The notes under the pieces were generated by a model that saw only the letters and a list, made by a program, of their open reading frames with translations, searched no databases and was not told the origin of the DNA. A stretch of 38,400 nt of DNA from Gammaproteobacteria bacterium (lineage in GTDB: Bacteria; Pseudomonadota; Gammaproteobacteria; Pseudomonadales; JANQJO01), in the NCBI GenBank assembly GCA_031409375.1, contig JANNXD010000062.1:1-38400 (forward strand), given 5' to 3'. Shown here in pieces: positions 3,283 through 31,930 of this stretch; the first letter of the stretch is position 1; each line of letters starts with the position of its first letter. The translations under genes and the position numbers were made by a program.

Positions 3283-5199
3283 CTAAATTCTCCTGTCGGA
3301 TAAAAACTGTTTCATCCGTCCATATGACGCCTGGAGAACAGGCTGTAACTGCTGATACTGCTGCATAAGATCGCCGCGCAGTATCTGTAATTGTGCGATA
3401 CCCGCACGTAATTCGGCCTGCAACTGGGTACGCTTGAATGCAAAACGTTGCTTTAATACCAAAATATCTTGGGGATCCACGCCCTGCTTTGGATCAAATA
3501 CAAACCAAGCCTGCAAACGCTGACGCCAATCGAGTAACTCATAACTAACTTTAGTACTAAAGCTCGGAATGTATCGCACACGTTCCAATTCCACATCGGC
3601 AGCCGTTTCAACGCCAAAGGACAATAGCATCGCGCGACGCGTGACACCAATTGCCGGAATGGTGGTATCGCTCACCAAAAATCTATCCAAAAATTTTTGC
3701 AATTGACGCTGACGAAGCTGATCTTTTAATGCTTGCTGCGCACGCAAAAACTGCTCAGCTAATGATTCATACTCAGCGCGAGCCTGACGTAAGCGTTGCC
3801 GCAACATAAAAAACGCGTGCTGTTGCGACAAACCCTGCAACTTATCTTGCCACTGCTGATACTCGCGCTGCGCATGTTGCGCCATTTTTTGGCGCCGCTG
3901 CTGTTCAGCCGACAAATCTACGTTCGGCAAAAAAAGGGCGCTGACAAAAAAAATCAGTAATTCAATTTGCCATGGCCAGAGATAAAATCCGTCCCAAACC
4001 ATCACGCAGATGCTGAGCTTGCTTAAGCGATAAATCCATTGTGATTGACGCATTCTCGGGGGTATCGCTAAGGGTTGCACTTTGATTTCAGTCACAATAG
4101 GCAGCGGCGGATCGGTGACCGCCATAATCTGCGACCACACAGCGGCCAAATCAAAATCTCCCTCCACTGATTCATTCAGTAGGGATAAAAAGAAATACAC
4201 GCCTGCACGATCCTGATGTTCACACCAAGGACACAGCGATAAACCACGCCAATACGTATGCAGGCTGGCTTGAGAACACCGCTGCAAGTCTGACTGACAC
4301 AAACTTAAAGCTTCCATCCACTGCCGTGGCAAAGGGCGAACCATTTGATCTGGGCTCTCAGTGACCACAAACGCCTGCGAAAATAATTGACGCAAAATCG
4401 GGGGCAAAATCGCAGGCGAAATACTGTTCGGTGGCGGATGCAAGCCACGCCGTGCTGCGTCATCGGCAAAAGCATAGGCGTTTTCAGCAATCGATTGTTC
4501 TAAGCTGCGATCACTATGATCGGCACGTACACCAGCGTAAGGGTGCCGCCCCATCAACAGCAAATGAAAAATCAACATCGCCAAACCAAAGCAATCTTGA
4601 TTAATGTCACGAATTAATCCACGAAACGATGCCTCATGCTGTAATTCTGGTGGCATAAAATGCGGCACCCCAACGTCACAGCCAAAAACCTGTTGATCGT
4701 GACTAATCTGAAAAGAATCACAATCAATCAATCGGATCAGCCCCTTGCCATCCACATAAACCAGATTGGGATTCACATCGCCAATGACATGATGATGTGC
4801 ATGAATGACGTCAAACACGCTCGCGATATTACGCGCCACATGCAGCAAAAAAGCCCAACTTTTATCCGGAAATTTTTGTTTGCGCTGAGCAGGACTATAG
4901 AGATGATGTAGCGGCTCATATGCACTGAGTTTGGGCATGATCAAGCCACATACGTCATCGCTGCCCCGAAATACCAAGGCAACCGGCCAAGCCGCCACTT
5001 TTAATAAGGCGGGTGTGGAGACTCCGACAAGTGCTTTGAGTTTTTGTTGTTTAGCAATGGGCAAGGGCTCATGATAAATTTTCACTGCCGCATTTAAACT
5101 CGGCAATTCATAGACGGCGCCTTCTCCGCCACTGCCCAATTTTTTACCCAGCGTCAGCGTCTGTCCAGAAGCGTCCGTGAATTCCGACAGGGTGCTCAT
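3283..5199 (-). CDS. Atypical eukaryotic-like Ser/Thr protein kinase with C-terminal tandem helix-hairpin-helix (YegI-like, TerY-P triad kinase)
   Basis: Gly loop LGSGGEGAVY; beta3 Lys in AVKIY; divergent catalytic loop HHHVIGDVNPNLV; Mg-binding DCDS in place of DFG; PPE in place of APE; DCFGLAMLIFHLLLMGRHPY (subdomain IX). The mid region has C-x6-C...CPWC, then a ~28-aa hydrophobic segment, then a Gln/Arg-rich coiled coil. C-terminal IPAIGVTRRAMLLSFGVETAADV plus a second HhH-like repeat. At 638 aa it is close to E. coli YegI (~648 aa). Confidence 0.75.
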   Translation of the reverse strand: MSTLSEFTDASGQTLTLGKKLGSGGEGAVYELPSLNAAVKIYHEPLPIAKQQKLKALVGVSTPALLKVAAWPVALVFRGSDDVCGLIMPKLSAYEPLHHLYSPAQRKQKFPDKSWAFLLHVARNIASVFDVIHAHHHVIGDVNPNLVYVDGKGLIRLIDCDSFQISHDQQVFGCDVGVPHFMPPELQHEASFRGLIRDINQDCFGLAMLIFHLLLMGRHPYAGVRADHSDRSLEQSIAENAYAFADDAARRGLHPPPNSISPAILPPILRQLFSQAFVVTESPDQMVRPLPRQWMEALSLCQSDLQRCSQASLHTYWRGLSLCPWCEHQDRAGVYFFLSLLNESVEGDFDLAAVWSQIMAVTDPPLPIVTEIKVQPLAIPPRMRQSQWIYRLSKLSICVMVWDGFYLWPWQIELLIFFVSALFLPNVDLSAEQQRRQKMAQHAQREYQQWQDKLQGLSQQHAFFMLRQRLRQARAEYESLAEQFLRAQQALKDQLRQRQLQKFLDRFLVSDTTIPAIGVTRRAMLLSFGVETAADVELERVRYIPSFSTKVSYELLDWRQRLQAWFVFDPKQGVDPQDILVLKQRFAFKRTQLQAELRAGIAQLQILRGDLMQQYQQLQPVLQASYGRMKQFLSDRRI

Positions 5200-5217
5200 G
5201 GGATTGCCCGCATGATC

Positions 5218-5979
5218 TTATTCAACACCAACCGATTCAATATCCACCGATAAGCGAGTCGCCAGCACCAGGGTTTTATCATCATCGGTGCGGTCATTCA
5301 CACTGGCACTGTGCAAAAAACTTTCGAGCTGTTGATGCAGCAAGGGCAAGTGCTGCCGACGCCGTAATTGCTGCCACATGGGCGCAAAAAATTCATGATG
5401 CGGGGTTTTCTGCGAATAATTTAATGCTAAACGCTGCAAGCCATCACTGAGCATGGCGATTTCCGTGATACTGACCGTCACCTTACATAACTGTAGATTC
5501 GCGAGCGCTGTATCATCGGTGAGGAAATGCGTCATATTGGCATAAGTCCCTTGCTCTGGCCAAAATACCACACCTTGGGTAGATCCATTACTCACCACCA
5601 TGGCACCATCACCAATCTGGGCAAACCAAGCTTGGTTTTGGCTGATGACAGCGAGCAATAGGGTACAAGCATAATCACGCGGACTCAAACCCTTTTGCTC
5701 AGCAAAGCAACATAAAGCTTGCCTTAACTGCTCAACACAATGAGACAACTGCTCCAGCGTCATATCACCCTGTGCAATCGAGTGGATATAGGTTGGTAAA
5801 TGCTCAATCACATAATTTGCACCTTCACCGCCATGAGTGGCGCTACCCGCCCCATCACTGACAATACCAATCCAATAATGCTGATCGGCTTGCACATGAC
5901 ACGCGTCTTGACATGATTGCTGATTGTCAGCGTGCGAGCTCCCTACCACCGAAGCGAACAAACTTCTCCACTTGAGCAT
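5218..5979 (-). CDS. PP2C-family Ser/Thr protein phosphatase (YegK/PphC-like, TerY-P triad phosphatase)
   Basis: Metal-binding motifs IGIVSDGAGSATHGGEGAN and FAQIGDGAMVV are characteristic of bacterial PP2C_2. It is 253 aa, the same size as E. coli PphC. The stop lies 18 nt before the kinase start, indicating an operon. Confidence 0.75.
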   Translation of the reverse strand: MLKWRSLFASVVGSSHADNQQSCQDACHVQADQHYWIGIVSDGAGSATHGGEGANYVIEHLPTYIHSIAQGDMTLEQLSHCVEQLRQALCCFAEQKGLSPRDYACTLLLAVISQNQAWFAQIGDGAMVVSNGSTQGVVFWPEQGTYANMTHFLTDDTALANLQLCKVTVSITEIAMLSDGLQRLALNYSQKTPHHEFFAPMWQQLRRRQHLPLLHQQLESFLHSASVNDRTDDDKTLVLATRLSVDIESVGVE

Positions 5980-5982
5980 CAG

Positions 5983-6675
5983 TTATAACTCAGCCCAACC
6001 CTGCGGGGCATCCAGCGGCACCGCCGTACCTGGAACCGAGCGCGACACGGATTTCATCGAGTTCGACAACCACTGAAATAACTCACGAAATTTTAGGCCA
6101 TCCAACTTCAGTGGTTCACGTACGGCTAACTGTTTTAGAATCGTCATATTTGCGTTAGCGACACCAACAGCAAAGAAAGCAAAGGCTTTACTGGTTTCGC
6201 CTTCGCGAATTGCATTCGCGGCGGACTGCCACTCATCCGTTGGTGCACCATCGGTAATTAAAAAAATCCAGGGCCGATAAAAGGCAATGCCATTGCTACG
6301 ATACATTTCTTTGCGCAACCGCACTTTATCTAGGGCATCTAAAATGGCCGCGCCCATAGGGGTATCGCCTTGCGCGGCTAACGATGGCGGCTGAAAATTT
6401 GGTGCAGTATGGAAATCATTCACCATGGTCACCGGGCCAAAACTGATCAGCGCAACTTCTATGCGCTTCATCGCCAAAGAATCGGTCAACAGCTCTTCTT
6501 TAAAAGCCTGTAATCCTGCATTCAAGGCGGCAATCGGCGCCCCTTGCATGGATGCCGACGTGTCCAGCAATAAGATGCACGGGCAACGAGGTTCAGGGTT
6601 ATCTGCAAAGCTATCCGTACCAAAAAAACTATCCGTACCGAATGGGGTTTGTTCATCAAAGGTCATATCCACCAT
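5983..6675 (-). CDS. von Willebrand factor A domain protein (TerY/YegL-like)
   Basis: MIDAS motif D-x-S-x-S (LLLDTSASM); downstream conserved Thr in GDTPMG and Asp in ITDGAPTD. Size is 230 aa. It sits 3 nt upstream of the PP2C gene. An N-terminal [12 protein letters not shown] mini-duplication is present. Confidence 0.8.
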
Positions 6676-6782
6676 CGCGTGCGGCCTCCACAGAGCAATT
6701 CTGTACGAGCATACGGAAATATTGTGTGAAGTTAAAGTGTAAATGCGTTAGCGACTTACAATCCAACCTGCTAGCCAACCTT

Positions 6783-7652
6783 TTACAAAAAAGCTGCTAT
6801 CAACTCATCCACACAATCCACACGCTCTGCAGCACTTAATGCCAAAGCATGCGACAGCGCTCGCCACTCACGACGGTTTAACATCATCAACTTACTCGCA
6901 GGCAAGTCACGTTTTTGTGCTTGCTGAGCGTTGAAGCTTTTCCATGGTCTATTACCAGCAATTAACTCATAAATAACACAAGCAAAAGCAAAAACATCAT
7001 CTTGCCTTGTTAATGGATTACCATTTAATCGCTCAGGACTGACATAAGCAGGCGTAATACCGGCGCGAAAATCGATACGGTTTTTTTTCGTCGATGTTGA
7101 TAATTCACCATAGACACCATCGAGCAAGCAAGCCAAACCAAAATCGATCAACTTGAGCTGACAATCACCATGGATCAGCAGATTACTGGGTTTTAAATCG
7201 CCATGAACTATTTGCTGACGATGTAAATATTGTAACGCTCCACCTAACTGACGAATAAAAACCCGAACCAAATCTAATGGAAAACCGACAGAGTGATGCT
7301 GTTTTAATAGGTCATCCATGCCTTTACCTGGCACGTATTCGAGCACGATATAAGCGATGTCTTCATAGGATGGTAAATGTGAAACATGAAAACCGTAACT
7401 ACGAACAATATTCGGATGTCGCAAGGTCTGTAACAATTCATTTTCCCAAATAAAAGCCGAAAACAGCGCAGGACTACTAAGAAACTTAGGTTTTAAACAC
7501 TTTAATGCCACCCGAACATTCGGCTTAATTAGAAACATAGCATCTGCTGATATTGTTTTGGCCAAATAAACCTCACAAATACCGCCACGACCCAACTTAG
7601 CTTGAATTTGAAAGCATTGATCAATGCAGGTACCTTGGGTTAAAAACGGCAT
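6783..7652 (-). CDS. Hanks-type Ser/Thr protein kinase, kinase domain only
   Basis: All canonical motifs are present: LGRGGICEVY (Gly loop), VALKCL (VAIK), E in ENELLQTL, HGDLKPSNLL (non-RD catalytic loop), DFGLA, SPE (APE), DVFAFACVIYEL. It is 289 aa with no sensor or TM domains. Confidence 0.85.
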   Translation of the reverse strand: MPFLTQGTCIDQCFQIQAKLGRGGICEVYLAKTISADAMFLIKPNVRVALKCLKPKFLSSPALFSAFIWENELLQTLRHPNIVRSYGFHVSHLPSYEDIAYIVLEYVPGKGMDDLLKQHHSVGFPLDLVRVFIRQLGGALQYLHRQQIVHGDLKPSNLLIHGDCQLKLIDFGLACLLDGVYGELSTSTKKNRIDFRAGITPAYVSPERLNGNPLTRQDDVFAFACVIYELIAGNRPWKSFNAQQAQKRDLPASKLMMLNRREWRALSHALALSAAERVDCVDELIAAFL

Positions 7653-7741
7653 AGTACAACAATAACATCCTAATCAAAGCCTGCTTGACGCTTATCACCT
7701 ATCGCTGCATCACAACCATGACTATGCGTAAAAATTCTGAA

Positions 7742-8335
7742 TTAAGCGAGAGCATTCTGTGCAAATGCTTTTTTATCTGGCGGCAACAAGCTACGCGTTA
7801 AACTCCAGTGCAAATCGCCTACATTATAGTGTTCGCTTTTACGAAAGCGCAGTAATGGCAATTGGATACTCATAAAAACACTGTCGATTAATGCTGCATT
7901 AGGATCAGGCTTAATCGGATCAAGTAAAGTAATCACCGCTAAAATACGCGAGGTTCGTCGATCACATAAGATAAAATCGACTTGTTGTCCGGCAATTTGC
8001 TGAAAAGCCGACATTTTGGTTTTTAATGACAATCCTTTGCTAATCTGCACAATATTAGCAATGCTCACTTTCCCTAGAATCAAATACTCATTGCCGACAG
8101 CACGCATCAATGCCGCCAAAAACTTACGTTCTTCATTGGAATAAAAGTGTGACTTTGGCGCATAAGGTAAATCAGAGCGCATGCGCTGACGTGGGTCAAT
8201 GCGTAATATCAACAAGGTTCCAGCCAAGAGCACAAACACAATAATTCCCCAGATGGGTAATGGCATTATCGACAACAACATACAACACCTCACTTTACAG
8301 CCCAATTTAAACCTTGCAACAGAATGCTGACTCAA
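7742..8335 (-). CDS. DUF2726 domain protein (restriction-endonuclease-like fold) with N-terminal TM helix
   Basis: TM helix LPIWGIIVFVLLAGTLLIL. The region EERKFLAALMRAVGNEYLILGKVSIANIV...QQVDFILCDRRTSRILAVITLLD matches the conserved DUF2726 core (ERxF..L...y.h..kV.l.dv...VDFvLcD....vlavIElD). It is the first gene of the minus-strand operon, 89 nt upstream of the Hanks kinase. Confidence 0.65.
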   Translation of the reverse strand: MSQHSVARFKLGCKVRCCMLLSIMPLPIWGIIVFVLLAGTLLILRIDPRQRMRSDLPYAPKSHFYSNEERKFLAALMRAVGNEYLILGKVSIANIVQISKGLSLKTKMSAFQQIAGQQVDFILCDRRTSRILAVITLLDPIKPDPNAALIDSVFMSIQLPLLRFRKSEHYNVGDLHWSLTRSLLPPDKKAFAQNALA

Positions 8336-8561
8336 TAACCAGACAGAAAGCCGTCTTAATTAATGGCGCGAGCTTAGCTCAGCAAGTGTTGTACCAGTAT
8401 TAGCTTTCATCGTTTTTTACGGGATGCTCGCTTTTTTCTAAATTTTGCCAACTGCATCTTCAATAATTAAAAATTATCGTGTAACCGATTGGCGAGATAT
8501 AACATCCTAATCTAGCCTTCTTTCGGTTTGTCAGAACCAACCTACCAAGGATGAGCTTAAC

Positions 8562-10652
8562 GTGCTTAAGGAAGACCAACTGTATCATCGATTACTGGCT
8601 ACCACGGGATACTTAAAACACGGGGCATGGGTTGTTTTTTTGATCAGTGGCACACTCTTACTTGATCTTTACCGATGGCATGCATTCACCTCTCTACTGA
8701 TAACGATTTTGCAATGCCTATTATTTGGCTTGCTCGGCATCGCGCTAATTCAACAGAAACGTCATTTTATGGCAATTCGTATCTGGCAAAACCTCGAACC
8801 ACTTCGTCAAGAAAAAATACAAGCGCAAATTCAAGAAACGGTTTCATCTCGCATTAACGAACTCAAAAAAATGACGCACGCCGCCTTAAAGTCAGCAGCA
8901 ACCTCCAATCAAAACTTTCAAGCAGCTCAGCGTGCCACGCGCCATAAAAGTGAATTTCTGGCAACCATGAGCCATGAAATACGTACACCGATGAATGGCG
9001 TTTTGGGGATGACTGAGTTATTACGCGACACCGAGCTTACGCCGCAACAACAACACTATTTGGATACCATCTGTACTTCTGGTATGACACTACTGACCAT
9101 TATTGATGATCTACTGGACTACTCAAAACTCGAAGCAGGTAAACTGTCGATTGAAAATATTGCCTTTAATTTGCATCGATTAATTGATCAATGTGGTGAT
9201 ATGTTCGCCTTAAACTCCGCTAAAAAACAGCTCCCTTTATTAATTTTTGCACCCACCAATATTCCAGAAACCTTGTATGGCGACCCCACTCGAATTCGTC
9301 AAATTCTTGTCAACCTATTAGGCAATGCTTTTAAGTTCACTGAGAAAGGGGCCATTCATCTCTATGTGACAATCGAACCCTCTGTGTCTGATCCAGCTGA
9401 CGATCAAGCTGACCACCTATCCGATATTCAAACAGGTTATCCGTCAAACAACCATATAGAACAGCAATTTTTCAACATCACCTTTAGCATTCGCGATACG
9501 GGCATCGGAATGACGGCACAGCAAATTGAGCAGCTTTTTCAAGCATTCCAACAAGCAGATCATCATATTAGCCGACAATATGGTGGCACCGGTTTGGGTT
9601 TAGCCATTTGCAAACGTCTAGTCAACTTGATGCGTGGAGAGATTGGCGTACGTAGCCATGCCAGTTATAACAGTGAATTTTGGTTTCGCTTACCGCTTTG
9701 CGTAAAGGGGCTGATCCAGTATCGTTTCGACCCGCAGCGATTACACAATCAAAGCTGCTGCATTGTGAGTGATGATCCTTATCTCATTGCGCAACTTCAA
9801 CAATTACTGAATAGTTGGGGCGGCCATAGTCAAGTCTACTCTCTGAAGAGCGCCATGAAAAAAACGCCCCAGTTAGAATCACTGGCGTTAATCGACTGCC
9901 CACCCACTCAAGGGAATGAGGTGTTAGCGTGGATTACGCCAGCATCCCATCATAAAATTGTGCTGTTGGGCTATGCAGGGACCCTACCGTCCACTCAAAA
10001 CATTACAGAGTCTGGAATTACCGCTGCAATAGAAAAACCCATTTCACCTCTAGCCTTATATCAATGCCTAGAGCAAATGCTGCACAACGCTGAGCTACTT
10101 GAACCAGCGCCAACATCCTTGACTAAATTTCCTATCCAATTTACTCAGCTCGAAATATTGGTGGCGGAAGACAATCTCGTTAATCAGACCGTCGTACGCG
10201 GTATGCTCGGCAAGCTCGGCATTAAGCCCGTCTTCGCCAACAATGGGCAAGAGGCGATCAGACTATTTGCACAAGCCAATCCATGTTTTGATTTAATTTT
10301 CATGGACTGCGAAATGCCAGAACTAGATGGTTTTGGCGCCACAGAGCAGATTCGCCAATATGAGCAACAACATCAGTTAAAAAAAACACCGATCATTGCT
10401 TTAAGCGCACACGCCATGAATGAGCATATCCAACATTGCTTGACCTCCGGCATGGATAAACATATTGCCAAACCAATGAACTTAGATGTATTGAAACAGT
10501 GTTTGATAAATTATTTTCCTACCCATGCTAGATCGACGCCCGCCCCATTCGAGAACGACATGCCAACGAACAACACTGACGACATCAGTCCAGCATCAAT
10601 GCCTGAATTCGATCCACAGGCAAATCTGCGATCTTCAGATTTAAAAAATTAA
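8562..10652 (+). CDS. Hybrid sensor histidine kinase/response regulator
   Basis: N-terminal TM helices; HisKA H-box [18 protein letters not shown]; HATPase_c G-boxes ([21 protein letters not shown]); C-terminal REC domain ([26 protein letters not shown] in IALSAHA). The start is a GTG/alternative start as called by the ORF track. Confidence 0.85.
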
Positions 10653-11477: not shown

Positions 11478-12959
11478 TTAGCGTACAAATAACGGGGTTA
11501 TCAGCACCGTCAAAGGTGTACGGATCGATTGAATATAACTGGGTATATCGTAATCAGGTTTAGACGTATCGACATAAAGGTCAAACACCATGGTATAAAT
11601 TTTATCAAGCGGGATATTCGACACTTCAAAACCAATATTGGGCCACTGACCCACGAAGCGCTCTGGATCTACCTTTAAACGCGCATCATCTTGATAAATT
11701 AAATGTACAGGCGTTTGTGAATTGCCTGGAATGGTCAGTGTAGCCAGCGCTTGAAAATTTTCAGGGCTCTTTAACATCCACCAACATTGTTCTGGCTTTA
11801 ACGCTTGCTGTTGTAGTGCATTTTCTGACAAGGATAAACGACCATCAACAATACCTAAAGGTTGATCACCATGCATACCATACACCTGGCTTCCCAATAA
11901 CTGATTCGCATCAACCGAAATCGATACCGAGGTATTCTCAACAAACATCGGCATCCAAGCTGGTGTTTTTGCACGGGTAATCGCTCGCATATTGGCAGCA
12001 GAAAATTGGTACATTACCCATAAATTCATAATGGGCACTTTAGCTAAAATAATAGTCGCCTTCATCTGTACGCTAGCGCGGATTGGACCTTGAAGTACAC
12101 CCTGAACACTGGCATGGAAATTACGATTGGTAATGGTTAAGCCATTACTCGCACCCACCCAATGACCTTGAATCCGCATTTTTAACGTATCTAACAGGCT
12201 CGATTTTTTTTTATCCTCAAAAGCAAAAAACTGCATATCCGTCAATTCGAGTGGATTTTTTAAACTCGAAGCCAACGAATAGTACTGCGTATCTGCAAAA
12301 TAAGTCTCCACATCATAACGCACATAATCATGAGTCGAACGACGAGCGTCTTGCCATAATAAATACACAAAGCGCGGGCCTGACAAAGTGGTGACTTGCA
12401 ATTCTAATAAGGGATTGATCGGTGAAACACCCAAGTGCCAGCGCTCACTACTAGCATCTTGCAACATAAACAACAACTCATCACGTCCATCCCACCTTGC
12501 GGGCACACCAGAATTTGCTATCGCCATTTGTGACAGAAAGGGAAAACCTTCTCGATTCATCTCATCAATTTGAAATGGAATCGGTTCCAACTCGCCATCA
12601 ATCATTGTCGCTAATGATAAATCTGCAATCTGCCATACACGAGCTTTGAGAGGTGATGGCAACTGCGCAGCCGTGAAAGTGATCATTCGCAACTGCTCTG
12701 CTTTTGATAATGGCTGTGTTTTAAATAACGAAAATGAAGATGCCTGAACAGGTAATGCGTACAAAAACAATAAAACGATTAAAACTCCCGTTAAATCAAA
12801 CTGAAATACACAATTTCTAGATAGCTTGTCTAGACTAATTTCACTCAATAAAGTTTTTCTAATGTGTTGCAACATGATGATCATAAATAGCCATGACTGA
12901 ATTTGACCCGCTGAAAACCGATACCTATGCTCGGCATTTGGCAGCGGTGAATGAAACAC
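11478..12959 (-). CDS. Hypothetical exported/membrane-anchored protein (start uncertain)
   Basis: 493-aa ORF with no motif I recognise. The hydrophobic segment LTGVLIVLLFLYALPVQA-SS looks like a signal peptide or anchor. The annotated 5' end overlaps the divergent HD-GYP start, so the true start is probably downstream. Confidence 0.45.
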   Translation of the reverse strand: MFHSPLPNAEHRYRFSAGQIQSWLFMIIMLQHIRKTLLSEISLDKLSRNCVFQFDLTGVLIVLLFLYALPVQASSFSLFKTQPLSKAEQLRMITFTAAQLPSPLKARVWQIADLSLATMIDGELEPIPFQIDEMNREGFPFLSQMAIANSGVPARWDGRDELLFMLQDASSERWHLGVSPINPLLELQVTTLSGPRFVYLLWQDARRSTHDYVRYDVETYFADTQYYSLASSLKNPLELTDMQFFAFEDKKKSSLLDTLKMRIQGHWVGASNGLTITNRNFHASVQGVLQGPIRASVQMKATIILAKVPIMNLWVMYQFSAANMRAITRAKTPAWMPMFVENTSVSISVDANQLLGSQVYGMHGDQPLGIVDGRLSLSENALQQQALKPEQCWWMLKSPENFQALATLTIPGNSQTPVHLIYQDDARLKVDPERFVGQWPNIGFEVSNIPLDKIYTMVFDLYVDTSKPDYDIPSYIQSIRTPLTVLITPLFVR

Positions 12960-14278
12960 ATACCGTGATTGTCACGGAAGACATCCGCAATACATCCGGT
13001 GTATTGGTGGCTAAAAAGGGCATTAAGCTCGAAAAAAATGTTACGGATAAAATATTGCAACATCGATTATTAAAACCTTTGCAAGACTGCGTCAAAATTG
13101 ACCAAGCTATGGATGGTGAACGCCTCTATGCCTATATGCTAGATTGGTTAAGACCGCATCACGATCTGACGACCATCCATCAACAACTGAATATGGATCG
13201 TGCTTTAAAAGCATTGTGTAACCATTATCAAAAATTTACCACCCTTCACCAACTCATCACAGTTTTGCTGACGCAACTCCCTGAAGTATTTAATCGCAGT
13301 TGTTTCGCAGCTTGGCTCGCGACCGCCATTGCGCAACACCGCAAGCTCAGAGTTGATGACACAATCACTGCATTTATCGGCGGACTTTGTCATGATATTG
13401 GTTTACTGCATCTACCTGAAGAGATAATCGTAGGGGAAGCGCAACAAAAACCCAAAGAGTCTCGAACTTTTCAAGCCCATCCGATCATCGGGCAAAAAAT
13501 TATACAAGCCATCTCGGGGTTACCGTCGGCGCTGGCACAGGTTATTTTTGAGCATCATGAAAGTTGTGATGGCACGGGTTATCCCACCAGCAAATTTGGG
13601 GAGCACCTGCATCCCATTGGCCAGATCGTCGCCCTTTGCGACTGCTTATACCCTTTACGTTTTAACCCCAATTCCAACAATCAACGTACTTTGAAAGACT
13701 TACAACCTTACCTGAACCTCAATCAAGAAATACACCTCTATGCTAACTATCAAGCGCTGACACAGCTCCTTCAACAGACCAATTTAAACATTCAACGCAA
13801 TGTTGCCGATGCAGACATGCAGTCTCATTGTGCAAAACTGTTGGAAAATTATCAGTTACTAACTATATGGGGACGCGTCATTTGTGACGTTATGGGTTAT
13901 CTGCCGAAAAACAGTGCCGCTAAAGCCATCAATATCGCGCTTAACATGTTACAAAGTATCAAGAAAATTATTCGTCACTCAGGCCTATTTAATGAAGGCA
14001 TACGACGTTGGATTCAACACGTCAAAGATAATAACAGCAGTGATTCGTTTTCTGAAATGGAAGAAATTGGCTTGATGTATGACGAACTTTTAGCCCATAT
14101 GCGTAAGTTCTATCGGCAAACGGTTTTAATCACTGAGCAAGACTTTTTCAAGGACAATAACTTCGCACATCAAGAAGACATTCTGATTTGTACAGGCTTG
14201 ATGCAACAACTCAATATCAACCAAATACCTGACGTCTTACGAGATGCTAGTTTTAACATCGAAAGCTTTATGGTTTAA
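12893..14278 (+). CDS. HD-GYP domain c-di-GMP phosphodiesterase-family protein
   Basis: HD motif in GGLCHDIGLLHLPEE; HHESCDGTGYP (HD-GYP signature); N-terminal ~150 aa uncharacterised. Confidence 0.8.
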   Translation: MTEFDPLKTDTYARHLAAVNETHTVIVTEDIRNTSGVLVAKKGIKLEKNVTDKILQHRLLKPLQDCVKIDQAMDGERLYAYMLDWLRPHHDLTTIHQQLNMDRALKALCNHYQKFTTLHQLITVLLTQLPEVFNRSCFAAWLATAIAQHRKLRVDDTITAFIGGLCHDIGLLHLPEEIIVGEAQQKPKESRTFQAHPIIGQKIIQAISGLPSALAQVIFEHHESCDGTGYPTSKFGEHLHPIGQIVALCDCLYPLRFNPNSNNQRTLKDLQPYLNLNQEIHLYANYQALTQLLQQTNLNIQRNVADADMQSHCAKLLENYQLLTIWGRVICDVMGYLPKNSAAKAINIALNMLQSIKKIIRHSGLFNEGIRRWIQHVKDNNSSDSFSEMEEIGLMYDELLAHMRKFYRQTVLITEQDFFKDNNFAHQEDILICTGLMQQLNINQIPDVLRDASFNIESFMV

Positions 14279-17545: not shown

Positions 17546-18400
17546 TCAGCCACCGAAGTGGTCAAAGCCTTGCAAAGCCAAACCCAATAAAAATCCATGC
17601 ACCGCAGGCCAATAGGCAGGAAAGCTATCCAAATTGTTATGATTCGCATCTGGTATCACTATCAATTTTATTTCAGCATTAACACCACTTAAGACTTTAC
17701 TATGATTAATCGGAATCACTTCATCTTTACTGCCATGAATAATGAGCACTGGCATACTATGAATAGCAGACAACGCTTTTTCATTATCCAAATCAATGCG
17801 CGAAAAAACTTCTGGCAAAAAAGGGTAAATCTCTTTTCCTAATTTAGCGATGCTGCGATAAGGTGCTTCCAATATCAATCCACTCGGATGATGTTCAGCT
17901 GCAAGCGCTGTGGCAATACCCGAACCGATACTGCGGCCAAACAACACCACGGGTGAATGCGGCTTTTCTTGCGACAGTTTGCTACGAAGTGCTCGACCCA
18001 TTTCAAGCAATATTTTTTCAGTTTTTGGCAAACGGCCCCCGCTTTTGCCATAACCTGGAAAATCCATGATCCATACCGCCCAGCCGGTATGCTTCACCAA
18101 ATCACTGGCAACAAAACCCCACTCTTTTAAGCTACCTGCATTACCATGAAAATAAAGAATAGTGCCTTGATTACTTTCAGAGTTAAAAACCAGATAGTTA
18201 ATTTTTTGGCCGGATTTAAGCTGTATGTTCGCTTCACGAAATGGAATTGGAAAATGAAAACTAAAATCTTCCGCTAATTTTTCAGGAAAAAAGATCAATC
18301 GCTCTTGATTAAAATAAAACACCGCAATAGCAAGCATCATCAATAACGCTATGCTGAACAAGGGCACCAGTAACCAGCTAAGCATCCTACTCACGCACAA
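17546..18400 (-). CDS. Alpha/beta-hydrolase fold protein (membrane-anchored)
   Basis: N-terminal TM helix; nucleophile elbow GRSIGSG; HGN oxyanion-hole motif in YFHGNAGS; C-terminal His in DANHNN. Confidence 0.8.
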   Translation of the reverse strand: MCVSRMLSWLLVPLFSIALLMMLAIAVFYFNQERLIFFPEKLAEDFSFHFPIPFREANIQLKSGQKINYLVFNSESNQGTILYFHGNAGSLKEWGFVASDLVKHTGWAVWIMDFPGYGKSGGRLPKTEKILLEMGRALRSKLSQEKPHSPVVLFGRSIGSGIATALAAEHHPSGLILEAPYRSIAKLGKEIYPFLPEVFSRIDLDNEKALSAIHSMPVLIIHGSKDEVIPINHSKVLSGVNAEIKLIVIPDANHNNLDSFPAYWPAVHGFLLGLALQGFDHFGG

Positions 18401-18611
18401 TCCTATTCACAATTTTTCTAACCACAGGTGCCACCACGCTCACTGTTGGAAACGCCACCACAAAAGCAAAACTCCACGCCTTAAGCCAAATGGCAATAAT
18501 ATTGACAACAAAACCAACATTAAATAACGTAATCACCAACGACATGATGCAGGACATCAATAACGACATAAAAAACGCAAAAACTATGTGCTGATATTTT
18601 TTATCAATCAT
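18387..18611 (-). CDS. Small membrane protein, DUF2798-like
   Basis: 74 aa with two predicted TM helices. It overlaps the hydrolase start by 14 nt on the same strand, suggesting an operon. Family assignment is from memory of the MSLLMSxxMS..FNxG pattern. Confidence 0.45.
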   Translation of the reverse strand: MIDKKYQHIVFAFFMSLLMSCIMSLVITLFNVGFVVNIIAIWLKAWSFAFVVAFPTVSVVAPVVRKIVNRIVRE

Positions 18612-18731
18612 ATTGTGAATTCCTTAAACTCAACAGTTCTGACAGTTTTAGGTTGAAGAAATAGAGACCATGAGCGTAACCTGAGCAAACAACGGTTACA
18701 ACGCCAACAGGAAATTTTAGTTGTGTAGAAT

Positions 18732-29009: not shown

Positions 29010-31616
29010 TTAAAGTACTCGCTGCTTAACCCAGTTGGTTACGGATGCCAATGCAGCAACCAGGCTTTCGATGTTTTGCTCCTGCCCCAGCTGACCACCA
29101 CCCATGGCCATTTGTGCTTTGCCACCACCTTTGCCACCCAGCTGCTGCGCAACATAACTAACCAGCTCGCCGGCATGATACTGAGGAATTAACGCATCAG
29201 CCACTGCCGCCACCAGATTAATTTTGCCTTCCTGCTCACTAGCAAGTAGCACAATCGCCAAACCTAACTTTTGCACTGACTGATCAAGCAAGATACGCAA
29301 TTGCTTAATATCAACAGCACCTGGCACCAAAACGGCCAATAACTTTATACCATTGATCTCGATTGTTTGCTCCAGCCATTGATCACGCTGCTGGCTCAAC
29401 GCCAACTGCTGCGCCGAAGCCAATTGCTTTTCTAGGTTTTTAATCTGCAGCAACAACTGTTGGCTTTTATCCAGCAGCTGCTCAGGCTTAACCTTTAATT
29501 GCTGCACCAATTGATTCAGTAATTGCGTTTGTTGCTGAGTAACATCAATAGCATCCTGTCCTGTTGCCGCTTCAATACGACGCACACCCGACGCAATACC
29601 AGTTTCCTGCAAAATTTTAAAGTACCCAATGTCGCCAGTGTGACTGACATGCGTACCGCCACAAAGCTCAACGGAAAAAGCGTTACTACCCATGGTCAGT
29701 ACCCGCACCTGCTCATGATATTTTTCCCCAAACAACGCCATCGCACCGGCTGCTTTTGCTTGCTCTATGTTCATTTGCTCAGTAGCAACATGCGTATTGT
29801 GACGAATCTGCTGATTAACCAAACTTTCAATCGCAGTCAACTGCTCAAGAGCAATCGGTGCGTCGTGAGAAAAATCAAACCGCAAACGATCTGCCGTCAC
29901 CAGCGAACCTTTTTGCTGCACATGTAGCCCAAGTAAACCACGTAATGCCGCATGCAATAAATGGGTTGCCGAGTGATTGGCTTGAATACGCGTACGATTG
30001 CTCACATCAATCATCGCTTGTACAGGATCATTGACCGCCAACGGACCAATCAACTTACCTTGATGAATCACTACATCACCATTTTTGATGGTGTCTTCAA
30101 CCACAAACACCGACTCACCTTGCGCGTTACACAATTGCCCACGATCACCAATTTGACCACCCGATTCGGCATAAAAAGGTGTTTGATTCAGTACAACCTG
30201 AGTGTCGGTCAACAACAAGACTTGCGCAGAAACTTCACTGCGGTCATAACCCAAAAACTCAGTCGCTTGGTTGATATCCAGCCGCACATAATCCTCGCTG
30301 GAAAACTGACCTTGCTCTTTGGAACGTAAACGTTGCGCGGCCATGGCGTGATCAAAACCCGCCTGATCCAATGGGATATTTTTTTCACGCAGCAAATCCA
30401 GCGTTAAATCCAGCGGAAAACCATAAGTATCATAAAGCGTGAAAGCCAGTTGACCTGACAAAGCCTCACTGGGCTTTAAATTCTGCACCGTTTTTTCTAA
30501 CAGTTTTAAACCTTGATCTAACGTTTCTAAAAACCGCAGCTCTTCGCGCAACAATGCCGCCTGCACTTGCTCGGCACGCGCTCGCAACTCAGGATATGCC
30601 TCACCCATTTGTTCAACCAATGCCGGCACACACAAATAAAAAAATGGCTCAGTTGCACCAAGCTTTCGCCCATGACGCACGGCACGACGAATGATACGGC
30701 GCAACACATATCCACGACCTTCATTCGACGGCATCACCCCATCCACAAGTAAAAAACTACAAGAACGAATATGGTCGGCGATAACTCTTAAAGACTGTTG
30801 CTGTAAATTCGAAATATTCAAAATTTGTGCAATCGCGCCAATTAATGCTTTAAACAAATCAATATCGTAGTTGTTATGGACACCTTGCATCACCGCCGCG
30901 ATACGTTCCAAGCCCATGCCGGTATCCACAGAAGGTTTTGGCAAATCAACCAATCGACCATTGGCAAACCGCTCATATTGCATAAAAACGATATTCCAAA
31001 CTTCAATAAAACGATCGCCATCAGCATCAACACTACCGGGTGGACCACCAGCGACCCCTTGGCCATGATCATAAAAAATTTCGGTACAAGGTCCACAGGG
31101 GCCGGTATCACCCATCGCCCAAAAATTATCCTTCTCATCTAACTTATAAATACGATCTGCAGGTACGCCGATCTGTTGTTGCCAGATGTCATAAGCCTGC
31201 TGATCCGTCCGAAATACCGTAACTGATAATTTGTCTTGGGGAATGGCTAAGACTTCGGTCAAAAATCGCCACGCAAATCGGATAGCGTCTTCTTTAAAGT
31301 AAGCTCCAAAGCTAAAATTACCCAGCATTTCAAAAAAGGTATGATGACGTGCGGTGTAACCAACATTATCCAGATCATTATGCTTACCACCCGCTCGCAC
31401 CACCCGCTGTGATGACACTGCACGCTGATAACTGCGACTACTTTTACCTAGAAACACATCCTTAAATTGCACCATTCCAGCATTGGTGAACAACAAAGTG
31501 GGATCATCCCCAGGCACTAGAGAGCTGCTAGACACCACTTGATGGCCTTGATCAGCAAAAAATTTTAAAAAAGCGGCACGAATTTCAGCAATGGTTTTAG
31601 CGGTTTTATGGGTCAT
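29010..31616 (-). CDS. alaS: Alanine--tRNA ligase
   Basis: AlaS N-terminus TIAEIRAAFLKFFADQGHQVVSSSSLVP; class II synthetase motifs; editing-domain HxxxH motifs (HSATHLLH); C-terminal DHHA1/GGKGGG. Start placed at the ATG aligning with MSKSTAEIR of E. coli AlaS; the ORF track extends 21 codons upstream to a non-ATG start. Confidence 0.9.
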   Translation of the reverse strand: MTHKTAKTIAEIRAAFLKFFADQGHQVVSSSSLVPGDDPTLLFTNAGMVQFKDVFLGKSSRSYQRAVSSQRVVRAGGKHNDLDNVGYTARHHTFFEMLGNFSFGAYFKEDAIRFAWRFLTEVLAIPQDKLSVTVFRTDQQAYDIWQQQIGVPADRIYKLDEKDNFWAMGDTGPCGPCTEIFYDHGQGVAGGPPGSVDADGDRFIEVWNIVFMQYERFANGRLVDLPKPSVDTGMGLERIAAVMQGVHNNYDIDLFKALIGAIAQILNISNLQQQSLRVIADHIRSCSFLLVDGVMPSNEGRGYVLRRIIRRAVRHGRKLGATEPFFYLCVPALVEQMGEAYPELRARAEQVQAALLREELRFLETLDQGLKLLEKTVQNLKPSEALSGQLAFTLYDTYGFPLDLTLDLLREKNIPLDQAGFDHAMAAQRLRSKEQGQFSSEDYVRLDINQATEFLGYDRSEVSAQVLLLTDTQVVLNQTPFYAESGGQIGDRGQLCNAQGESVFVVEDTIKNGDVVIHQGKLIGPLAVNDPVQAMIDVSNRTRIQANHSATHLLHAALRGLLGLHVQQKGSLVTADRLRFDFSHDAPIALEQLTAIESLVNQQIRHNTHVATEQMNIEQAKAAGAMALFGEKYHEQVRVLTMGSNAFSVELCGGTHVSHTGDIGYFKILQETGIASGVRRIEAATGQDAIDVTQQQTQLLNQLVQQLKVKPEQLLDKSQQLLLQIKNLEKQLASAQQLALSQQRDQWLEQTIEINGIKLLAVLVPGAVDIKQLRILLDQSVQKLGLAIVLLASEQEGKINLVAAVADALIPQYHAGELVSYVAQQLGGKGGGKAQMAMGGGQLGQEQNIESLVAALASVTNWVKQRVL

Positions 31617-31930
31617 AACAATCTCATGGGTCATAAAAATTTTATCGGGCAAGGCGACGACATCCGCCGAAAAAGCCAACTCAAACAGCAGGCGTAAAAA
31701 GTCTGTATTCTAAAGGAGTGTTTTTTTTTAAACAAATATCATTGATTGCTCATTTAAACCCATCACTTGCACATCATCACTTGCACATCAACCATGAAAA
31801 ACAGGCTACTTAAATAAATACCACAAGTCGTTACCAAGCTTTACAGAACCGAAGCGTACTTTTCGTTAGCCTAGCAACATCAGTTTTAAAACCATACTTT
31901 GGTCGCATAGCCGCATATTAAGGACGAGCA

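Follow-up and report, generated by a model that had tools for sequence, protein, structure and literature searches.

The closest described relatives of the locus reported here are the TerY-P triads, in which a vWA protein (TerY), a PP2C phosphatase and a Ser/Thr kinase are encoded together. As described in later publications, Anantharaman et al. (2012) introduced the triad and Gao et al. (2020) demonstrated that it has stand-alone anti-phage action (PMC11090510, PMC7699616), and a TerY-P variant from P. aeruginosa (Costa et al.) acts against Autographiviridae (10.1101/2022.08.12.503731). The E. coli proteins YegI and PphC have kinase and phosphatase activity in vitro, and no inducing condition or phenotype is known for them (10.1101/819920; PMC13232886). 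DUF2726, a domain encoded by a further gene of the locus, is a restriction-endonuclease-fold family that is found fused to Abi-type domains (PMC3710099). The locus itself lies at positions 3283 to 8335 of a 38,400-nt stretch of a gammaproteobacterial contig (JANNXD010000062.1, assembly GCA_031409375.1), from now on referred to as the window. Here, five minus-strand genes encode, in the order of transcription, a DUF2726 membrane protein, a small Hanks-type kinase, a vWA protein, a PP2C phosphatase and an atypical kinase.

A first-pass annotation of the window had proposed that the DUF2726 and Hanks kinase genes expand a TerY-P triad into a phosphorylation-gated effector system, and thus that all five genes form one candidate defence cassette. 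Our analysis argues for a different organization: the five genes very probably represent two independent transcription units that are adjacent only in this lineage and do not constitute one system. The cassette reading fails because no linkage between the two units turned up at the surveyed loci outside this strain, because relatives most likely hold the units unlinked and because each unit has separate conserved upstream DNA. Unit 1, running from 8281 to 6783, would be a two-gene operon of the DUF2726 membrane protein followed by the minimal Hanks kinase, while unit 2, running from 6675 to 3283, would be a TerY-P triad of the YegL-PphC-YegI type, preceded by a separate conserved block (Table 1).

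The five co-directional open reading frames (ORFs) encode, by rising coordinate, 638, 253, 230, 289 and 197 amino acids (the last counted from a TTG in the mechanical ORF 7742-8335) and are separated by 18, 3, 107 and 89 nt, in exact agreement with the coordinates given at first pass. The DUF2726 gene most likely starts at an ATG at 8281, preceded by GAGGTG, which yields a protein of 179 amino acids as called on identical Logan contigs. Pfam searches returned the same domain calls as the first-pass annotation (DUF2726, Pkinase, vWA and PP2C_2), with the atypical kinase scoring below the Pkinase threshold (24 bits against a cutoff of 31.7). Compared by megablast with every complete E. coli genome, the region gave no match, so the window is not of enterobacterial origin, and an NCBIfam search returned no equivalog at its cutoff.

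Linkage and upstream DNA of the two units

The triad survey covered 80 loci (L021-L100) from species-level genomes, out of at least 592 confirmed YegI stretches in species-representative genomes. A complete triad in the same gene order was present at 75 of them; of the five exceptions, two are truncated where the contig stops. Searching with a hidden Markov model (HMM) built from 150 family members (E ≤ 1), no DUF2726 gene could be detected within 10 kb of any of the 80 triads. Further, no small kinase adjoined a triad at any of these loci, the only kinase matches being multidomain proteins of more than 890 amino acids encoded kilobases away. Clustering of the flanking ORFs identified neither a recurrent fourth or fifth gene nor a defence-island signature; the flanks show lineage-specific synteny only, involving genes for TetR, ABC-F, a PAS histidine kinase, RNase II, DnaJ together with Hsp70-like YegD, and chagasin. 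As a negative control, 80 generic DUF2726 loci were collected by scanning metagenome contigs with a DUF2726 alignment (≤36% identity). No triad components were found at these loci, and a kinase-like ORF, large and unrelated, was located near one of them.

The three closest YegI homologues (64-73% identity; L016, L018, L020) are all part of stand-alone vWA-PP2C-YegI operons with housekeeping neighbours, namely dnaX-ybaB-recR, acpP-fabF and alaS-lysC, and their retrieved flanks contain no DUF2726 gene and no small kinase. Pair and triad are linked neither in E. coli K-12 nor in the seven other lineages that carry the pair. Altogether, among more than 170 related loci, none from outside this strain showed the linkage. 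The first-pass annotation had suggested a search for the combination of DUF2726 and Ser/Thr kinase genes upstream of yegLKI-like triads and for a location in defence islands. The combination did not recur in the surveyed loci, and the neighbours of the triad are housekeeping genes both here and at the 80 other loci. Chance adjacency, without co-occurrence elsewhere, had been named as the alternative, and this is what the neighbourhood survey found.

Pair and triad contigs recovered from the same sample have matching GC content: 0.468 (L003) and 0.472 (L016) in 3300032268, 0.458 (L009) and 0.459 (L018) in 3300037310, and 0.484 (L004) and 0.480 (L020) in SRR21713532. In addition, AlaRS and LysC encoded at L018 are 83% and 95% identical to their counterparts in the window. 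Based on the shared samples, the matching GC content and these identities, related organisms most likely carry both units, unlinked.

Conserved non-coding DNA was found upstream of each unit. The block preceding the vWA gene is common to the upstream regions of the stand-alone triads L016, L018 and L020, where the DNA flanking it is unalignable, which argues that the triad moved together with its own control region. It probably represents the promoter or operator of the triad, with TTTAAC-N17-TAtGCT as a possible reading. Upstream of the DUF2726 gene, the intergenic region has diverged except for three islands kept in all five close relatives: a sigma-54-type -24/-12 element, an inverted repeat at a distance typical of enhancers and a short palindrome downstream of the promoter. 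As the -24/-12 motif alone is not significant in the window (two found, 0.94 expected), it is the positional conservation that serves as evidence for this element. Sigma-54-like elements are also present upstream of two more distant pairs (L182 and L184). A sigma-54 activator would then turn on expression of the pair, and this activator may act downstream of the conserved hybrid histidine kinase next door.

The 14-mer GATTAGGATGTTAT occurs exactly at 7662-7675 and 8499-8512 on the minus strand (zero expected by chance), with one copy just upstream of the kinase start and the other within the inverted repeat upstream of the DUF2726 gene. It was not used as evidence, being exact only in this strain; relatives retain GGATGTTA-like cores only.

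Table 1 Features of the two predicted transcription units and their surroundings, by position in the window
Feature	Positions	Strand	Basis and remarks
YegI-type atypical Ser/Thr kinase	3283..5199	-	N-terminal kinase domain, putative central hydrophobic hairpin, coiled coil, C-terminal tandem helix-hairpin-helix, (HhH)2
PphC-type PP2C Ser/Thr phosphatase	5218..5979	-	PP2C_2 E 3e-50; 41% identity to E. coli PphC over 249 amino acids
YegL/TerY-type vWA protein	5983..6675	-	VWA E 8e-7; 63% identity to E. coli YegL
Conserved non-coding block CGCTAACGC..CTTTAACTTCAC..ATATTTcCGTAtGCTCG	6706..6757	-	Upstream of vWA gene, ~50 nt; probable promoter or operator of the triad
Minimal soluble Hanks-type Ser/Thr kinase (non-RD: HGD), second gene of pair	6783..7652	-	Pkinase E 2e-42
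Single-pass membrane protein with DUF2726 (PD-(D/E)xK / Vsr-like fold), first gene of pair	7742..8281	-	DUF2726 E 2e-19; mechanical ORF to 8335
Candidate sigma-54-type -24/-12 element TGGTAC-N5-TTGCT	8381..8396	-	~100 nt upstream of DUF2726 start codon; conserved in register in five close relatives
Inverted repeat GGCTAGAT..ATCTnGCC	8491..8517	-	~110 nt upstream of -24/-12; conserved block; candidate enhancer (upstream activating sequence) for sigma-54 activator
Hybrid histidine kinase (HisKA-HATPase_c-REC), divergent	8562..10652	+	Pfam; conserved neighbour of pair, not triad

The DUF2726-kinase pair

Close homologues of the 289-residue kinase are confined to five lineages (64-74% identity; L003, L004, L005, L009, L012), and all five are encoded directly downstream of a DUF2726 gene of 177-179 codons. 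These loci are flanked by the same divergent hybrid histidine kinase and a PP-loop gene, and the kinase is followed either by carbonic anhydrase and ABC transporter genes or by a ComEA-like gene, never by vWA, PP2C or YegI. In L182 and L184, too, a more divergent DUF2726 gene (52% and 38% identity) directly precedes a small kinase (265 or 292 amino acids; 41% and 36% identity), again with no triad beside it. One of these deeper pairs is bordered by a PP-loop gene upstream and by ABC2 and QueF genes on the other side; upstream of the second pair lies a divergent hybrid histidine kinase. Counting both close and deeper loci, the hybrid histidine kinase adjoins the pair in L003, L005, L009, L012 and L184. 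The DUF2726-kinase pair is a conserved, uncharacterised two-gene module seen in seven other lineages, with the identity of its DUF2726 protein ranging from 38% to 91%. Among close relatives this identity is 75-91%, above the conservation of the kinase.

The 289-residue kinase looks active since its sequence keeps the VALK lysine as well as the HGD, DFG and SPE motifs. Its partner is a membrane protein, and here the first-pass calls of a transmembrane helix and a PD-(D/E)xK-like fold hold up. The Kyte-Doolittle scan gives a strong N-terminal signal, corresponding to helix 8-27 of an AlphaFold2 (AF2) model. Apart from the Pfam match, the fold is backed by the alpha-beta-beta-beta-alpha-beta core of this model (predicted local distance difference test score, pLDDT, 75), which is typical of PD-(D/E)xK enzymes, and by the top Foldseek matches BstEII, TnsA, FAN1 VRR-NUC and BsaWI, all of them weak (E 0.013-0.4).

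The proposal that this protein acts as a nuclease effector fared less well, as most of the conserved active-site residues of the family are replaced. Judged against a 150-member family alignment, the substitutions are R73S, D76N, H100Q, E118T, D120L, H124K, R128N and D129A. Position 118 is A or S in the orthologues, and T-L-L takes the place of E-L-D in motif III; residues 118-120 sit on beta-3 of the AF2 model, the place of motif III in PD-(D/E)xK enzymes. The remaining replaced positions (R73, D76, H100, H124, R128 and D129) are 73-94% conserved in the DUF2726 family. E51, K71, D102 and D121 are retained. Of the PD-(D/E)xK catalytic acid set, consisting of D on beta-2 and E-x-D/K on beta-3, D102 is therefore kept and the beta-3 E-x-D is absent. 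Because a profile of 71 DUF2726 proteins found no match among PDB sequences, this active-site mapping rests on family conservation and AF2 topology. The DUF2726 domain thus appears to be catalytically degenerate and, with most conserved active-site residues missing, a poor candidate for a nuclease effector. We suggest that the protein would most likely be a partner of the small kinase that is under strong constraint but has no catalytic activity, serving as its anchor, regulator or substrate.

An alternative is that the pair represents a small defence or toxin module with an active membrane nuclease under kinase control. The restriction-endonuclease fold of the family and its fusions to Abi-type domains (PMC3710099) would be in line with this idea, but throughout the subfamily the E-x-D motif is replaced, as are six more polar residues that the family conserves. 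Moreover, an identity of 75-91% at a fixed syntenic locus by a histidine kinase is core-gene behaviour and not that of a fast-evolving defence system. The small kinase does score well against the PD-T4-6 and mad6 kinase-domain HMMs of PADLOC (E 1e-55 to 1e-45); however, these matches cover the generic Hanks domain only, with 36 families hit and NCBIfam PknB matched too. We therefore consider a defence or toxin role of the pair distinctly improbable.

The data on both units also bear on the original idea of one phosphorylation-gated conflict system, with the additional kinase and the nuclease-fold DUF2726 protein as its sensor and effector. The neighbourhood survey largely refutes it. In its favour, the genes run in one direction with little space between them, the search predicted no terminator between the units, the arrangement is stable in three samples of this strain and TerY-P triads elsewhere are known to attach to nuclease or restriction modules (PMC11090510, PMC4978471). 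Against it, the linkage is missing from all of the more than 170 related loci, relatives hold both units apart, the conserved DNA upstream differs between the units and the putative effector lacks conserved catalytic residues. Taken together, a single five-gene system is very hard to credit.

Several points weigh against two independent units as the preferred reading. Identical contigs are present in two further samples, so that the five-gene arrangement is stable in this population (three samples of the strain in total). The 107 nt that separate the kinase gene from the vWA gene contain no predicted intrinsic terminator, so that read-through co-expressing all five genes is possible in this strain. 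The assignment of pair and triad contigs to the same organism is based on sample, GC content and identity levels and not on closed genomes. All relatives with the pair seem to have a triad elsewhere, which would allow for a functional link in trans; for example, the PP2C phosphatase of the triad might also reset the kinase of the pair, which comes without a dedicated phosphatase. The loss of DUF2726 catalysis is inferred from sequence alone, the candidate sigma-54 element is called from motif and conservation, and no gene for a sigma-54 activator was found within the window.

In a further model, the pair is an undescribed sigma-54-controlled membrane signalling module with a nuclease fold recruited as non-catalytic kinase partner, and its position beside the triad makes read-through expression and cross-talk possible in this one lineage, for example with the PP2C of the triad as the missing phosphatase of the small kinase. 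We regard this combined model as improbable and favour two units that are independent of each other.

The YegL-PphC-YegI-type triad

Judged by homology, genes 3283-6675 are a TerY-P-type triad of full-length homologues of E. coli YegL-PphC-YegI. Direct BLASTP against the K-12 locus (L015) bore out the equivalence in order and size noted at first pass, with identities of 63%, 41% and 38%, and all three proteins are similar over their full length with gene order kept. The architecture is that of TerY-P systems: a vWA protein with an intact DxSxS metal ion-dependent adhesion site (MIDAS) motif (LLLDTSASM), a PP2C gene starting 3 nt after the vWA gene and an adjacent Ser/Thr kinase gene. The N-terminal tail of the vWA protein carries a strain-specific in-frame tandem duplication of 18 nt (6607-6642, minus strand), resulting in a duplicated FGTDSF that is absent from E. 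coli YegL.

The 638-residue kinase aligns with E. coli YegI over 622 amino acids (E 1e-138). Both share the catalytic loop VIGDVNxN, and D-x-D-S replaces DFG: VIGDVNPN and LIDCDSFQ of the window kinase align with VVGDVNQN and LIDSDSFQ of the E. coli protein. D159, D161 and S162 are invariant across 18 sequences, and the functional importance of the noncanonical catalytic loop and the D-x-D-S residues of YegI has been reported (10.1101/819920). A hydrophobic stretch at about residues 390-430 aligns with the transmembrane region of E. coli YegI, one segment only exceeding a Kyte-Doolittle value of 1.6. No HhH model of Pfam matches the C-terminus. However, the (HhH)2 proposed for this region at first pass gained support from profile matches below threshold, in which REV1 (E 0.04) and UvrC (E 0.3) aligned through their HhH regions, and from a confident AF2 model (pLDDT 90), the best PDB neighbours of which all contain (HhH)2, namely the RNA polymerase alpha C-terminal domain, the Rad51/RadA N-domain, the Y-family polymerase thumb and Hjm.

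As in the homologous E. coli proteins, for which the reactions were observed in vitro, the putatively membrane-anchored triad kinase would autophosphorylate on serines near the D-x-D-S loop and the PP2C phosphatase would reset it. The vWA/MIDAS protein may be the partner that binds a ligand or a phospho-acceptor, while the (HhH)2 at the C-terminus of the kinase may tie the phospho-switch to DNA. In the cell, the triad would then work as a TerY-P-type phospho-switch, serving in stress or in defence against phages. No phage phenotype is known for the YegI subfamily, and we lean slightly against an anti-phage role for it.

The YegI family comprises at least 906 homologues (E ≤ 1e-10). YegI-type triads span gamma- and betaproteobacteria, Chlorobi, cyanobacteria, Chloroflexi and many Methanoregula archaea. 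Members were found on 56 plasmid records, 23 of them conjugative and some of them megaplasmids, and none were found in phage records. Complete triads are common in Methanoregula and other Methanomicrobiales (e.g. L039, L042, L050, L059 and L077), with 34-38% identity to the window kinase, which implies inter-domain transfer of the module. At 16 loci, including those of Competibacteraceae and Contendobacter metagenome-assembled genomes, a TetR-family gene follows yegI co-directionally after about 22 nt (L041, L043, L044, L047, L049, L051, L053, L054, L063, L066, L073, L075 and four further loci). This gene may be a lineage-specific fourth member of the operon.

Within the clade of the window, the position of the triad has shifted repeatedly. 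At L018, a stand-alone triad lies about 5 kb from alaS-lysC (17590-21534), whereas in the window some 24 kb separate alaS-lysC (27743-31679) from the triad, and the two are oriented differently relative to each other than at L018. Such variability, together with the plasmid-borne members, could indicate that a dedicated anti-phage system of the TerY-P type entered this lineage by recent horizontal transfer, with insertion of the triad downstream of the pair, given that TerY-P triads protect against T7-like phages (PMC7699616, citing Gao 2020) and Autographiviridae (10.1101/2022.08.12.503731). Its genomic position indeed differs in every relative, and its GC content (0.487) and third-position GC content (GC3, 0.48-0.50) exceed those of the pair (0.41 and 0.34-0.41). 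This GC difference was rejected as a sign of horizontal transfer because it is weak, all values lying within the range of the other genes in the window.

However, the identities of the triad proteins to those of relatives (vWA 85-89%, PP2C 64-69%, YegI 64-73%) track those of vertical neighbours (histidine kinase 68%, small kinase 70-74%), which fits vertical descent with rearrangement. A search around the triad for direct or inverted repeats, an integrase, tRNA genes and terminators gave nothing convincing, and its neighbours are housekeeping genes, not defence islands, here as at the 80 surveyed loci. The PADLOC check proposed at first pass likewise yielded nothing system-specific: with PADLOC-DB v2, at default settings and at E ≤ 10, the PP2C protein matches PDC-M21C only and the kinase matches only the generic PD-T4-6 and mad6 models, while the vWA protein has no match even at E ≤ 10. 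Validated TerY-P kinases end in an oligonucleotide/oligosaccharide-binding (OB) fold and not in HhH (PMC11090510), and E. coli yegI and pphC have no known inducing condition or phenotype (PMC13232886). A recently acquired dedicated defence system is thus rather unlikely.

The first-pass term "undescribed" applies to part of the locus. The triad belongs to an already named and validated anti-phage type (Gao et al. 2020; Costa et al.), while the pair is uncharacterised; being of an already known kind, the triad leaves the sigma-54-associated DUF2726-kinase pair as the only, modestly new item. Setting the two apart removes a false lead, as adjacency in a single genome should not be taken for a system. 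YegL-PphC-YegI is a very widespread self-contained module of three genes with no constant partners, which narrows where its function should be sought. The DUF2726-kinase pair behind its sigma-54-type promoter becomes a new testable candidate for gammaproteobacterial Ser/Thr signalling.

Two further observations were made elsewhere in the window. In a 1472-residue protein (20042-24460, minus strand), an SNF2 helicase domain is confined to the last ~450 residues, and the ~1000 N-terminal residues have no Pfam match. A 493-residue ORF without Pfam match (11478-12959, minus strand; 468 amino acids as called on the Logan contig) is arranged head to head with an HD-GYP-type (HD_5) gene (12893-14278, plus strand), the mechanical ORF starts of the two overlapping.

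Comparison with known systems

With TerY-P defence systems, the window triad shares the trio of vWA (TerY), PP2C and Ser/Thr kinase genes and the capacity of this trio to stand alone (PMC11090510, PMC7699616, 10.1101/2022.08.12.503731). It differs from validated TerY-P systems in its housekeeping context and in matching no system-specific PADLOC model. The kinases differ as well: those of validated systems carry the C-terminal OB fold (PMC11090510) and CoCoNuT-linked ones a zinc ribbon, whereas the window kinase has a putative transmembrane hairpin and, at the C-terminus, a coiled coil plus (HhH)2.

E. coli YegL-PphC-YegI is the closer match. Gene order, protein sizes (219/253/648 amino acids in E. 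coli, 230/253/638 here) and the MIDAS motif agree, and E. coli YegI has the same noncanonical catalytic loop, D-x-D-S in place of DFG, putative central hydrophobic hairpin and HhH-containing C-terminal tail. Unlike in E. coli, the window has no yegD-type Hsp70 gene and no yegJ insertion, the vWA N-terminus contains the duplicated hexapeptide and the position of the triad varies within the clade.

The DUF2726 protein resembles its family (PF10881) and Vsr-DUF559-like nucleases in its Pfam match, core fold and the residues E51, K71, D102 and D121. It departs from them through the replacement of motif III (E118-x-D120) and of R73, D76, H100, H124, R128 and D129, and through its N-terminal transmembrane anchor. 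In the subfamily of the window, DUF2726 is always paired with a small Hanks kinase, a pairing not seen at the 80 generic DUF2726 loci. The 289-residue kinase is similar to PD-T4-6 or Stk2-type single-gene kinases and to MADS mad6 in that it matches their kinase-domain HMMs, which describe the generic domain only. In contrast to these mobile single-gene systems, it has a syntenic, vertically inherited DUF2726 partner.

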